Shown here in pieces: positions 55,597 through 59,618 of a stretch of 64,000 nt of DNA. Source of the stretch: Escherichia coli (lineage in GTDB: Bacteria; Pseudomonadota; Gammaproteobacteria; Enterobacterales; Enterobacteriaceae); assembly GCF_003334405.1 (NCBI RefSeq), contig NZ_QOWM01000005.1. One strand, written 5' to 3'. Position numbers and translations under genes: made by a program. Numbering within the stretch: position 1 is the stretch's first letter; every line of letters begins with the position of its first letter. The notes beneath the pieces are model-generated. The model saw only the letters and a list, made by a program, of their open reading frames with translations, ran no database searches and was not told the origin of the DNA.

Positions 55597-55902
55597 AACA
55601 ATTTCCCTTCATTGAATGAATGGAGATTTACCCAAAAACATTTCGGGCGGGATCGAGTATACACAACTAAAGCATGCGAATTACGGCGCGGGGAATTAGC
55701 GATGGCGTTTTAGGATAATTGGAATGAATATCAAATATAAGTTTCAACTTATATTTAAATAACAATAAAAATCATAAACTTAAAATAAAAACAAAAGCAA
55801 TTAATCTGCGTATTTTCCGAAATAAACAACGATTAAAAATCTATTTTAGGATTAACCTCATGGTATGATTTCCGTTAAATCACAGACAAGGGGATTTATC
55901 TG

Positions 55903-55931
55903 ATAAAAAAATGCCGACATAACGTCGGCAT
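55903..55931 (-). terminator. Rho-independent terminator of pgi
   Basis: atgccgac-ataac-gtcggcat stem; minus strand followed by TTTTTTT. Confidence 0.8.
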
Positions 55932-56004
55932 TGTTATTAAGGTTATTTAATCAATCGTGCTATGTATTAATTGCCGAATACGATGTACATATCGGCATCG
56001 ACCT

Positions 56005-56081
56005 GTAGGCCTGATAAGACGCGACCGCGTCGCATCAGGCATCGGTTGCCGGATGCGGCGTGAACGCCTTATCCGGCCTAC
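56005..56081. repeat. REP/BIME pair between pgi stop and its terminator
   Basis: gtaggcctgataagacgcgaccgcgtcgcatcaggc and gccggatgcggcgtgaacgccttatccggcctac. Confidence 0.85.
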
Positions 56082-56094
56082 ATATCGACGATGA

Positions 56095-57744
56095 TTAACC
56101 GCGCCACGCTTTATAGCGGTTAATCAGACCATTGGTCGAGCTATCGTGGCTGCTGATTTCTTTATCATCTTTCAGCTCTGGCAGAATACGGTTCGCCAGC
56201 TGTTTACCCAGTTCCACGCCCCACTGGTCGAAGGTGAAGATGTTCAGGATCACGCCCTGAGTAAAGATTTTGTGCTCATACAGCGCAATCAACGCACCCA
56301 GGCTGAACGGAGTGATTTCACGCAGCAGGATGGAGTTGGTCGGGCGGTTACCTTCGAATACTTTGAACGGCACCACGTAGTCAAGCGTTGCCGGATCTTT
56401 ACCCTGATCACGATATTCCTGCTCAACCACTTCGCGGGATTTACCAAACGCCAGCGCTTCGGTCTGGGCGAAGAAGTTAGACAGCAGTTTCTGGTGATGA
56501 TCAGAGAGCGGGTTATGGGTGATAGCCGGAGCGATGAAATCGCACGGTACCATTTTGGTTCCCTGGTGGATCAGCTGGTAGAACGCGTGCTGACCGTTAG
56601 TGCCTGGTTCACCCCAGATAATCGGGCCAGTCTGGTAATCCACAACGTTACCGTTACGGTCAACATACTTACCGTTGGACTCCATATTGCCCTGCTGGAA
56701 GTACGCCGCGAAACGGTGCATATACTGGTCATACGGCAGAATCGCTTCAGTTTCCGCACCAAAGAAATTGTTGTACCAGATGCCAATCAGCGCCAGCAGT
56801 ACAGGCAGGTTTTTCTCGGCAGGCGTGGTGGAGAAATGCTTGTCCATCGCGTGTGCGCCGGAAAGCAGTTCAACGAAGTTATCAAAGCCGATGGAGAGAA
56901 CAATCGACAGGCCAATCGCTGACCACAAAGAGTAACGGCCGCCAACCCAGTCCCAGAACTCGAACATGTTGGCAGTATCAATACCAAACTCGCCAACGGC
57001 TTTGGCATTGGTGGAAAGCGCCGCAAAGTGTTTTGCAACGTGTTTTTCATCACCTGCCGCTTTCAGGAACCAGTCACGCGCGCTATGGGCGTTGGTCATA
57101 GTTTCCTGAGTGGTGAAGGTTTTAGATGCTACCAGGAACAGCGTGGTTTCCGGGTTTACTTTTTTCAGCACTTCCGCGATGTGAGTCCCATCGACGTTAG
57201 AAACAAAGTGCATGTTCAGGTGGTTTTTGTACGGACGCAGAGCTTCGGTCACCATGTATGGGCCGAGGTCAGAACCGCCGATCCCGATGTTCACTACGTC
57301 AGTGATTGCTTTGCCGGTATAACCTTTCCACTCACCGGAAATAATCGCTTCTGAGAAGGTTTTCATCTTCTCCAGCACCGCGTTGACTTCCGGCATTACG
57401 TCTTTGCCATCAACCAAAATCGGGGTATTGCTACGGTTACGCAGCGCTACGTGCAGCACGGCGCGGTTTTCAGTGCGGTTGATCTTCTCGCCAGAGAACA
57501 TCGACTTAATCGCGCCCGCCAGATCGCACTCTTTCGCCAGATCCTGTAATTTCGCCAGCGTCTCTTCAGTGATGCGGTTTTTGGAGTAATCCACCAGCAT
57601 CTGATCGTCGAAGGTTGCGGAGAACTTAGAAAAACGATCGCCGTCTTTAGCAAAAAGATCGGCGATCGTAACGTCTTTCATTTCATCGAAGTGTTTCTGT
57701 AGTGCCTGCCAGGCAGCGGTCTGCGTTGGATTGATGTTTTTCAT
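56095..57744 (-). CDS. pgi: Glucose-6-phosphate isomerase
   Basis: ORF track 56095..57750; ATG at 57744 gives 549 aa; PGI family sequence. Confidence 0.97.
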
Positions 57745-57984
57745 TAGCAATACTCTTCTGATTTTGAGAATTGTGACTTTGGAAGATTGTAGCGCCAGTC
57801 ACAGAAAAATGTGATGGTTTTAGTGCCGTTAGCGTAATGTTGAGTGTAAACCCTTAGCGCAGTGAAGCATTTATTAGCTGAACTACTGACCGCCAGGAGT
57901 GGATGAAAAATCCGCATGACCCCATCGTTGACAACCGCCCCGCTCACCCTTTATTTATAAATGTACTACCTGCGCTAGCGCAGG

Positions 57985-58210
57985 CCAGAAGAGGCGCGTT
58001 GCCCAAGTAACGGTGTTGGAGGAGCCAGTCCTGTGATAACACCTGAGGGGGTGCATCGCCGAGGTGATTGAACGGCTGGCCACGTTCATCATCGGCTACA
58101 GGGGCTGAATCCCCTGGGTTGTCACCAGAAGCGTTCGCAGTCGGGCGTTTCGCAAGTGGTGGAGCACTTCTGGGTGAAAATAGTAGCGAAGTATCGCTCT
58201 GCGCCCACCC
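57985..58210 (+). promoter_or_regulatory. Lysine riboswitch (L-box) in lysC 5' leader
   Basis: Leader begins with AGAGGCGC and contains GGTGAAA...CGAAG...CGCC segments characteristic of the L-box; about 280 nt untranslated leader before lysC ATG; boundaries approximate. Confidence 0.7.
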
Positions 58211-58268
58211 GTCTTCCGCTCTTCCCTTGTGCCAAGGCTGAAAATGGATCCCCTGACACGAGGTAGTT

Positions 58269-59618
58269 ATGTCTGAAATTGTTGTCTCCAAATTTGGCGG
58301 TACCAGCGTAGCTGATTTTGACGCCATGAACCGCAGCGCTGATATTGTGCTTTCTGATGCCAACGTGCGTTTAGTTGTCCTCTCGGCTTCTGCTGGTATC
58401 ACTAATCTGCTGGTCGCTTTAGCTGAAGGACTGGAACCTGGCGAGCGATTCGAAAAACTCGACGCTATCCGCAACATCCAGTTTGCCATTCTGGAACGTC
58501 TGCGTTACCCGAACGTTATCCGTGAAGAGATTGAACGTCTGCTGGAGAACATTACTGTTCTGGCAGAAGCGGCGGCGCTGGCAACGTCTCCGGCGCTGAC
58601 AGATGAGCTGGTCAGCCACGGCGAGCTGATGTCGACCCTGCTGTTTGTTGAGATCCTGCGCGAACGCGATGTTCAGGCACAGTGGTTTGATGTACGTAAA
58701 GTGATGCGTACCAACGACCGATTTGGTCGTGCAGAGCCAGATATAGCCGCGCTGGCGGAACTGGCCGCGCTGCAGCTGCTCCCACGTCTCAATGAAGGCT
58801 TAGTGATCACCCAGGGATTTATCGGTAGCGAAAATAAAGGTCGTACAACGACGCTTGGCCGTGGAGGCAGCGATTATACGGCAGCCTTGCTGGCGGAGGC
58901 TTTACACGCATCTCGTGTTGATATCTGGACCGACGTCCCGGGCATCTACACCACCGATCCACGCGTAGTTTCCGCAGCAAAACGCATTGATGAAATCGCG
59001 TTTGCCGAAGCGGCAGAGATGGCAACTTTTGGTGCAAAAGTACTGCATCCGGCAACGTTGCTACCCGCAGTACGCAGCGATATCCCGGTCTTTGTCGGCT
59101 CCAGCAAAGACCCACGCGCAGGTGGTACGCTGGTGTGCAATAAAACTGAAAATCCGCCGCTGTTCCGCGCTCTGGCGCTTCGTCGCAATCAGACTCTGCT
59201 CACTTTGCACAGCCTGAATATGCTGCATTCTCGCGGTTTCCTCGCGGAAGTTTTCGGCATCCTCGCGCGGCATAATATTTCGGTAGACTTAATCACCACG
59301 TCAGAAGTGAGCGTGGCATTAACCCTTGATACCACCGGTTCAACCTCCACTGGCGATACGTTGCTGACGCAATCTCTGCTGATGGAGCTTTCCGCACTGT
59401 GTCGGGTGGAGGTGGAAGAAGGTCTGGCGCTGGTCGCGTTGATTGGCAATGACCTGTCAAAAGCCTGCGGCGTTGGCAAAGAGGTATTCGGCGTACTGGA
59501 ACCGTTCAACATTCGCATGATTTGTTATGGCGCATCCAGCCATAACCTGTGCTTCCTGGTGCCCGGCGAAGATGCCGAGCAGGTGGTGCAAAAACTGCAT
59601 AGTAATTTGTTTGAGTAA
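58269..59618 (+). CDS. lysC: Aspartokinase III (lysine-sensitive)
   Basis: ORF 58269..59618 (449 aa); KFGGTSV kinase motif, C-terminal ACT domains. Confidence 0.97.
   Translation: MSEIVVSKFGGTSVADFDAMNRSADIVLSDANVRLVVLSASAGITNLLVALAEGLEPGERFEKLDAIRNIQFAILERLRYPNVIREEIERLLENITVLAEAAALATSPALTDELVSHGELMSTLLFVEILRERDVQAQWFDVRKVMRTNDRFGRAEPDIAALAELAALQLLPRLNEGLVITQGFIGSENKGRTTTLGRGGSDYTAALLAEALHASRVDIWTDVPGIYTTDPRVVSAAKRIDEIAFAEAAEMATFGAKVLHPATLLPAVRSDIPVFVGSSKDPRAGGTLVCNKTENPPLFRALALRRNQTLLTLHSLNMLHSRGFLAEVFGILARHNISVDLITTSEVSVALTLDTTGSTSTGDTLLTQSLLMELSALCRVEVEEGLALVALIGNDLSKACGVGKEVFGVLEPFNIRMICYGASSHNLCFLVPGEDAEQVVQKLHSNLFE

Follow-up and report, generated by a model that had tools for sequence, protein, structure and literature searches.

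The lysC Leader of an Escherichia coli Contig Carries the Known Lysine Riboswitch, with Two Mutually Exclusive Conserved Helices in Its Expression Platform

The element located in the 5' leader of lysC in the sequence analyzed here is the lysine riboswitch of Escherichia coli, which is already known, annotated in RefSeq and experimentally characterized. The window, i.e., the whole stretch of DNA analyzed in this work, comprises 64,000 nucleotides of E. coli contig NZ_QOWM01000005.1 (assembly GCF_003334405.1), and all positions given below refer to it unless another sequence is named. We put at about 97% the probability of the whole account, according to which a lysine aptamer switches the leader between a helix sequestering the Shine-Dalgarno sequence and an anti-sequester helix, with exposure of the sites recognized by Rho and RNase E. 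It should be pointed out that this analysis itself established the identity and the covariation of the aptamer as well as two conserved helices that exclude each other, and that the dependence on lysine and the roles of RNase E and Rho were taken from the literature (PMC10946432).

Genomic Context and Transcript Start

The riboswitch-regulated gene lysC (58269-59618, + strand) encodes lysine-sensitive aspartokinase 3; its 449-aa product matches the NCBIfam equivalog NF006570 with 767.9 bits (cutoff 455), and the RefSeq annotation is the same. Its divergent neighbor is pgi (56095-57744, - strand), the ORF of a glucose-6-phosphate isomerase matching the equivalog NF001211 with 909 bits. According to the ORF coordinates, the spacer between them (57745-58268) is 524 bp long, which bears out the approximately 500 bp of non-coding DNA that the first-pass annotation had noted between these genes. 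Megablast searches revealed this spacer in every one of the 5426 complete E. coli genomes, with at least 99% identity in 5421 of them, which identifies the window as E. coli chromosome. In a genome carrying a 100% identical spacer, the order of RefSeq features is yjbE, pgi, "riboswitch", lysC, yjbD, and rluF, and the riboswitch feature spans the equivalent of positions 57981-58177.

The transcription start of lysC was placed at position 57963 (+ strand) on the basis of the published numbering, in which G309 is the G of the AUG codon and nucleotides 250-253 constitute RNase E Site1 (PMC10946432). Since the AUG is located at 58269-58271, this numbering gives a 5' UTR of 306 nt. Thus, of the long leader that had been proposed for the spacer, the 306 nt beginning at 57963 stand as such, and the remaining part of about 218 bp (57745-57962) is promoter DNA, because it lies upstream of the start of the lysC transcript. 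Within it, a perfect -35 sequence TTGACA (57928-57933) and a -10-like sequence TATTTA (57952-57957), separated by an 18-nt spacer, were read from the + strand as the putative lysC promoter. Its location agrees with the transcription start obtained from the published numbering, and TTGACA and TATTT are conserved in 14 insertion-free leaders of Enterobacterales. The consensus promoter scan did not flag this lysC promoter, as its -10 element is weak. The same scan indicated a promoter-like site for pgi on the opposite strand (57815-57786, ATCACA-18-TACAAT), which is a match to the consensus only.

The Rfam scan of the window also revealed several other RNA families. A match to the enterobacterial sRNA STnc430 (RF02053, 79 bits) is located between yjbE and pgi (55793-55942, + strand); Escherichia sp. 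L052 and the Enterobacteriaceae MAG L092 carry it at the corresponding place as well. A full-length match to the Hfq-binding sRNA sraL (RF01408, 153.3 bits) occupies positions 13436-13576 (+ strand). Finally, there are four matches to naRNA4 (RF02564, 67-84 bits), all on the - strand (6128-6198, 42108-42178, 46337-46407, and 56008-56078), one of them just downstream of pgi; presumably, these are intergenic repeats of the REP/BIME type.

Identity and Structure of the Lysine Aptamer

The Rfam covariance model Lysine (RF00168) matched positions 57981-58177 (+ strand) over its full length (model positions 1-182 of 182), with a score of 99.5 bits and an E-value of 3.1e-25 in the 64-kb window (3e-27 when the spacer alone was scanned). 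The first-pass annotation had considered the lysC leader to be a lysine riboswitch and had named a covariance-model score below the threshold as the outcome that would speak against it; the score obtained is more than three times the gathering score of 30. The identical span of the RefSeq riboswitch feature and the published lysine-dependent control agree with this assignment. In a permissive re-scan of both strands of the region 57700-58320, no other RNA family was found in the spacer at E <= 1.

A distance of 91 nt separates the aptamer from lysC, which follows it on the same (+) strand. The L-box had previously been drawn at 57985-58210, which overlaps the real aptamer and misplaces its 3' end, as 58173 is the closing position of helix P1 and 58177 the last one covered by the model. 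Nor does the aptamer end just before the ribosome-binding site of lysC, as had been supposed: the Shine-Dalgarno sequence GAGG is located at 58260-58263, so the aptamer stops about 85 nt short of it, with the expression platform in between.

Transfer of the model structure to the sequence yielded five helices, P1-P5, arranged around a central junction, with 47 of the 51 model pairs canonical in the window. These are P1 (57985-57991/58167-58173), P2 (57996-58004/58051-58059) with P2b (58011-58018/58037-58044), P3 (58063-58074/58083-58093), P4 (58094-58104/58111-58120), and P5 (58122-58127/58157-58162). The four non-canonical model pairs are situated in P2/P2b and at the top of P5; three of them (57999/58056, 58003/58052, and 58011/58044) fall where the kink-turn and loop E motifs are expected. 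In comparison with the RF00168 model, P5 of E. coli has about 18 extra nucleotides, which were folded into a 10-bp extension (58128-58137/58142-58151). Six complementary bases, GCCAGU (58024-58029) and GCUGGC (58075-58080), correspond to the L2-L3 loop-loop (kissing) contact. All core motifs are present in the window, i.e., AGAGG after P1, GCCGA after P2, UGUCA before P5, and GGAG before the 3' strand of P1, and their columns are invariant or nearly so (at least 90%) across 23 leaders of Enterobacterales.

It is also worth mentioning that the 5' strand of P1, CCAGAAG (57985-57991), is repeated inside P5 (58125-58131), where it belongs to a 12-nt inverted repeat (58125-58136/58162-58173) that is 83% complementary. 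The 3' strand of P1 consequently has a second, local partner. As this repeat is absent as a conserved feature in Erwiniaceae, the second copy is probably incidental.

Comparative Analysis of the Aptamer

Orthologous leaders were sought by a DNA-pattern scan of species-representative genomes, in which the J1/2 motif, the J5/1 motif and a KFGGT-coding stretch were required with E. coli-like spacing. This resulted in 104 loci of Enterobacterales, Pasteurellaceae, Orbaceae, Aeromonadaceae, Vibrionaceae, and Alteromonadales, together with a few genomes of Bacillales, Acidobacteria, KSB1 and Bdellovibrio-like bacteria. All 14 Enterobacterales loci that were re-scanned carried full-length matches to the Lysine model before lysC (78.6-99.9 bits). 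Among the recovered sequences, the leaders of two loci of Pasteurellaceae bacterium Macca (L066 and L067, two contigs of one assembly) are identical over about 150 nt, reaching from the end of the aptamer into the first codons of the gene, which reflects either a duplication or redundancy of the assembly.

For the analysis of covariation, 23 Enterobacterales leaders were aligned with MAFFT (an alignment that is not structure-aware), and the changes were counted over the 82 pairs of the proposed OFF structure, with controls in which the 3' partners were slid by 1-3 columns and with 500 shuffles. Overall, 91.1% of the cells were paired, compared with 40-45% in the slid controls. Changes on both sides were found in 26 of the 82 pairs, 21 of which belong to helices P1-P5 (23 in the breakdown by helix) and three to the L2-L3 contact; counted by helix, there were three in P2, five in P2b, nine in P3, one in P4, and five in the P5 extension. 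None of the 500 shuffles reached the observed covariation score. Considering the five measures used, the observed values were matched by none of the 500 shuffles on four of them and by nine shuffles on the measure of further pair types. In addition, RNAalifold applied to the 23 leaders recovered P1-P5 with no constraints imposed.

The compensatory changes in five of its pairs argue that the P5 extension is a real, lineage-specific part of the aptamer, as judged from the alignment. The comparative support for the L2-L3 contact is moderate: three of its six pairs changed on both sides, with a compensatory replacement of G-C by A-U in E. albertii and of A-U by G-C in Pluralibacter, and 67% of its cells were paired, a value that is low because the alignment is not structure-aware.

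Expression Platform

The region between the end of the aptamer and the lysC start codon (58178-58271, + strand) constitutes the expression platform. Consensus folding of the 23 leaders indicated a linker hairpin (58182-58186/58199-58203) in both the ON and the OFF fold, with 94.5% of its cells paired and with one-sided changes only. Downstream of it, two helices compete for the same segment, 58225-58231.

The first of them is the OFF, or sequester, helix, in which CCUUGUG (58225-58231) pairs with CACGAGG (58257-58263), burying the Shine-Dalgarno sequence. Consensus folding gave this helix for the isolated platform as well as for the complete leader, and it adds inner pairs at 58233-58234/58254-58255 and 58236-58237/58252-58253. 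The second is the ON, or anti-sequester (anti-P1), helix, in which CCUUGUG, together with positions 58209-58222, is paired with 58151-58173, i.e., with the 3' side of P5, J5/1 and the 3' strand of P1 (58151-58155/58227-58231, 58158-58159/58225-58226, 58161-58165/58218-58222, and 58172-58173/58209-58210). The minimum-energy fold of the single sequence contains this helix, and so does the consensus fold calculated after omission of the 5' half of the aptamer. As it takes the 3' strands of both P5 and P1, it excludes the lysine-bound aptamer.

Across the 23 leaders, 98.8% of the cells of the OFF helix are paired, with no both-side changes within Enterobacterales, and the ON helix has 97% of its cells paired, compared with 42-62% in the slid controls, again with no both-side changes. 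The columns of both helices are almost invariant, and within Enterobacterales the platform helices are thus backed by conservation and one-sided changes, with no covariation. The predicted accessibility of the Shine-Dalgarno sequence was higher in the ON than in the OFF context in 22 of the 23 Enterobacterales leaders (medians 0.38 and 0.02, respectively), the ON context being a crude one, which leaves the 3' half of the aptamer available for pairing with the platform. When the window sequence was taken by itself, the predicted values were 0.47 (OFF) and 0.51 (ON), so that thermodynamic prediction reveals no switch for this single sequence. Folded without constraints, the full leader adopts a minimum-energy structure that differs from the aptamer and has a z-score of only -1.78; the fold with the aptamer enforced is 16-19 kcal/mol less stable than the alternatives, with the energy of the ligand and of the tertiary contacts uncounted.

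Outside Enterobacterales, consensus helices burying the Shine-Dalgarno sequence were found in Orbaceae, Vibrionaceae, and Aeromonadaceae, and they are made of quite different sequences. In Pasteurellaceae, the Shine-Dalgarno sequence is largely buried in both contexts, with an accessibility of 0.25 or lower in all leaders except one; the crude ON context probably misses the anti-sequester of this family. The Pasteurellaceae platform alignment was too divergent, and no consensus structure was therefore returned for it.

Two other pairings involving the platform were considered and rejected. The long-range pairing of AGGGGGU (58046-58052) with AUCCCCU (58248-58254), present in the minimum-energy fold, is regarded as an artefact, because its partner is unconserved, being replaced by the non-compensating UUCCCU in Citrobacter and by UUAACCU in Erwinia. 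For a local hairpin, CCUUG-UGC-CAAGG (58225-58237), proposed as the alternative pairing of CCUUG, consensus folding favored the Shine-Dalgarno partner instead.

The structure of the platform also bears on the question of how the riboswitch acts. In the recovered loci of Bacillales, Acidobacteria, and KSB1, the same class of aptamer is followed by a GC-rich hairpin and a U-run before the aspartokinase gene (10 loci), and one could expect a riboswitch of the B. subtilis type, acting through an intrinsic terminator in the leader, here as well. This is highly improbable, as no terminator-like site was found on the + strand between 57963 and 58268, the platform is devoid of any run of four or more U, and its conserved helix pairs the Shine-Dalgarno sequence instead. 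Moreover, the published termination requires Rho and NusG, and mostly full-length product is formed when Rho is absent (PMC10946432).

The 5' Leader Hairpin and Insertions at the Aptamer Borders

Folding of the leader revealed an additional hairpin of 7 bp at its 5' end (CCUGCGC-UA-GCGCAGG, 57969-57984, + strand; -9.3 kcal/mol), which begins 6 nt downstream of the transcription start and runs right up to P1. All 14 insertion-free Enterobacterales leaders have a hairpin at this position, with compensatory changes in Mixta (CUUGCGCA/UGCGCAAG) and Tatumella (UACGUA/UACGUA). In Pantoea, it includes a U.G wobble, and a constraint acting at the RNA level is therefore favored. This hairpin is not mentioned in the study of the K-12 riboswitch (PMC10946432). 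That it represents a functional module of the lysC leader of enterobacteria that has so far gone undescribed is a tentative proposal, to which we assign a rather low probability. If it were true, the hairpin might cap the 5' end against the 5'-end-dependent entry of RNase E, which would make decay reliant on the internal sites gated by the riboswitch; alternatively, it might tune the lysine threshold through coaxial stacking on P1.

In several genomes, natural insertions are present at the borders of the aptamer. In E. albertii, an 87-nt element (positions 2008-2094 of locus L003) is inserted exactly between the 5' hairpin and P1, and a longer relative of it occupies the same border in Kosakonia arachidis (about 11030-11160 of locus L051). 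The same type of insert was also found in Enterobacter EA-1 and in two uncultured genomes (UBA3516 and a soil MAG). BLAST searches showed that the Kosakonia insert belongs to a dispersed repeat: E. coli genomes contain a median of 8 copies, which match it with about 75% identity, and no annotation lies under its E. coli matches among those listed. This repeat fits an ERIC/IRU element; the ERIC2 primer sequence was not found in the Kosakonia locus with up to 3 mismatches allowed.

The opposite border is interrupted in E. coli EECO1006, a human blood isolate (NZ_CP090319.1, positions 3444-4141 of locus L106), in which a copy of IS1 is located immediately after the aptamer, at the equivalent of about window position 58175. 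This IS1 parts the aptamer from the Shine-Dalgarno platform and from lysC, and it probably uncouples the gene from lysine control.

Rho, RNase E and the Proposed Mechanism

A C-rich, G-poor stretch is located in the platform at 58205-58225 (+ strand) and coincides with the published Rho-utilization site and RNase E sites. In 25-nt windows centered on +243 to +253, the content of C is 52-56% and that of G is 12-16%. Site1 (+250-253), which corresponds to 58212-58215, reads UCUU. Another UCUU, present at 58220-58223, is putatively the second RNase E site reported by Caron and co-workers (2012).

The functional data for this region come from the study of the same element in K-12. It placed a rut site near +240 of the lysC leader and showed that lysine brings about translational repression as well as RNase E cleavage at Site1 (PMC10946432). 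In vitro, Rho/NusG-dependent termination at G309 rose from 31% to 56% with lysine, and without lysine the anti-sequestering stem permits translation and hides the region containing the rut and RNase E sites (PMC10946432). Of the translational and transcriptional control by lysine that the first-pass annotation had suggested, both arms thus have published support (PMC10946432), with the specification that the transcriptional one depends on Rho and not on an intrinsic terminator. Furthermore, regulatory mutations conferring AEC resistance map mainly to the lysC riboswitch (PMC6254735).

In the mechanism that we propose, which agrees with the published experimental model (PMC10946432), the lysC mRNA begins at about 57963 with its 306-nt leader, of which the part 57981-58177 folds as the five-helix aptamer. 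When lysine is scarce, P1 would remain open, and the segment 58151-58173, comprising the 3' strands of P5 and P1, would pair with 58209-58231; the C-rich stretch would then be hidden and GAGG (58260-58263) free, which would allow lysC to be translated. Upon lysine binding, P1 and P5 would lock, and the freed CCUUGUG (58225-58231) would pair with CACGAGG (58257-58263), burying the Shine-Dalgarno sequence. The single-stranded segment 58205-58225 would at the same time be open to Rho, leading to termination at the start codon, and RNase E would cut at UCUU within the exposed C-rich stretch. As a net effect of lysine, translation, completion of the transcript and stability of the mRNA would drop together.

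One may ask whether lysine could instead control lysC through the promoter DNA alone, by means of a regulatory protein, with the structure of the leader being incidental. In principle, a protein might bind the palindrome at 57969-57984. ArgP is one of the promoter-level regulators of lysC. Additional regulation of lysC at this level has been reported (Liao and Hseu 1998, as quoted in PMC10946432). Against such an exclusive role of the promoter, reporter fusions driven by the foreign lacUV5 promoter are still repressed by lysine in vivo, from about 2-fold to 8.5-fold depending on the length of the fusion, and this repression occurs only with the riboswitch present (PMC10946432). Furthermore, the covariation described above maintains RNA base pairs, and the U.G wobble of the Pantoea 5' hairpin points to a constraint on RNA and not on DNA. 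Control by the promoter alone is as improbable as an intrinsic terminator, and promoter control is an added layer over the riboswitch, not an alternative to it. Less probable still is attenuation by ribosome stalling on a leader peptide that would sense charged lysyl-tRNA, since the only ORF of the leader (57 codons, TTG start, 58068-58241, + strand) has no lysine codon, starts inside P3 and is followed by no terminator.

Considering the above, the lysC riboswitch is a textbook case of a single RNA sensor with three outputs, i.e., translation, Rho termination and RNase E decay, and lysine analogues such as AEC are known to target it. To this picture, which remains unchanged, the present analysis makes small additions: the conserved 5' hairpin, the P5 extension supported by covariation, and the ERIC-like and IS1 insertions at the borders of the aptamer.

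Comparison with Known Systems

The lysine riboswitch of E. coli K-12 lysC has reportedly been studied by Caron and co-workers in 2012, and the L-box, or lysine riboswitch, of B. subtilis lysC is said to have been studied in 2003 by Sudarsan and co-workers as well as by Grundy and co-workers. The element of the window is the same as that of K-12 (RF00168; Ghosh et al. 2024, PMC10946432). The landmarks of the K-12 leader fit the window exactly, with G309 being the G of the AUG, Site1 reading UCUU, and the C-rich rut lying near +240, and no functional difference between the two was found.

The L box of B. subtilis represents the same aptamer family and shares with the window the five-way junction, the L2-L3 contact, the AGAGG/GCCGA/UGUCA/GGAG core and the aspartokinase gene that follows. 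The difference is limited to the expression platform and to P5, which is extended in the enterobacterial aptamer: the Bacillales loci have an intrinsic terminator, whereas in the window the Shine-Dalgarno sequence is sequestered and the sites of Rho and RNase E are exposed.

Within E. coli itself, the closest parallels are the thiC and ribB riboswitches, in which folding in response to the ligand uncovers a C-rich rut site within the riboswitch and thereby gates Rho directly (PMC10946432). The lysC riboswitch resembles them in that Rho termination is gated directly by the structure of the RNA. They differ from it in their ligands and aptamer families (TPP and FMN, respectively), and in lysC, RNase E sites are additionally exposed in the same segment.
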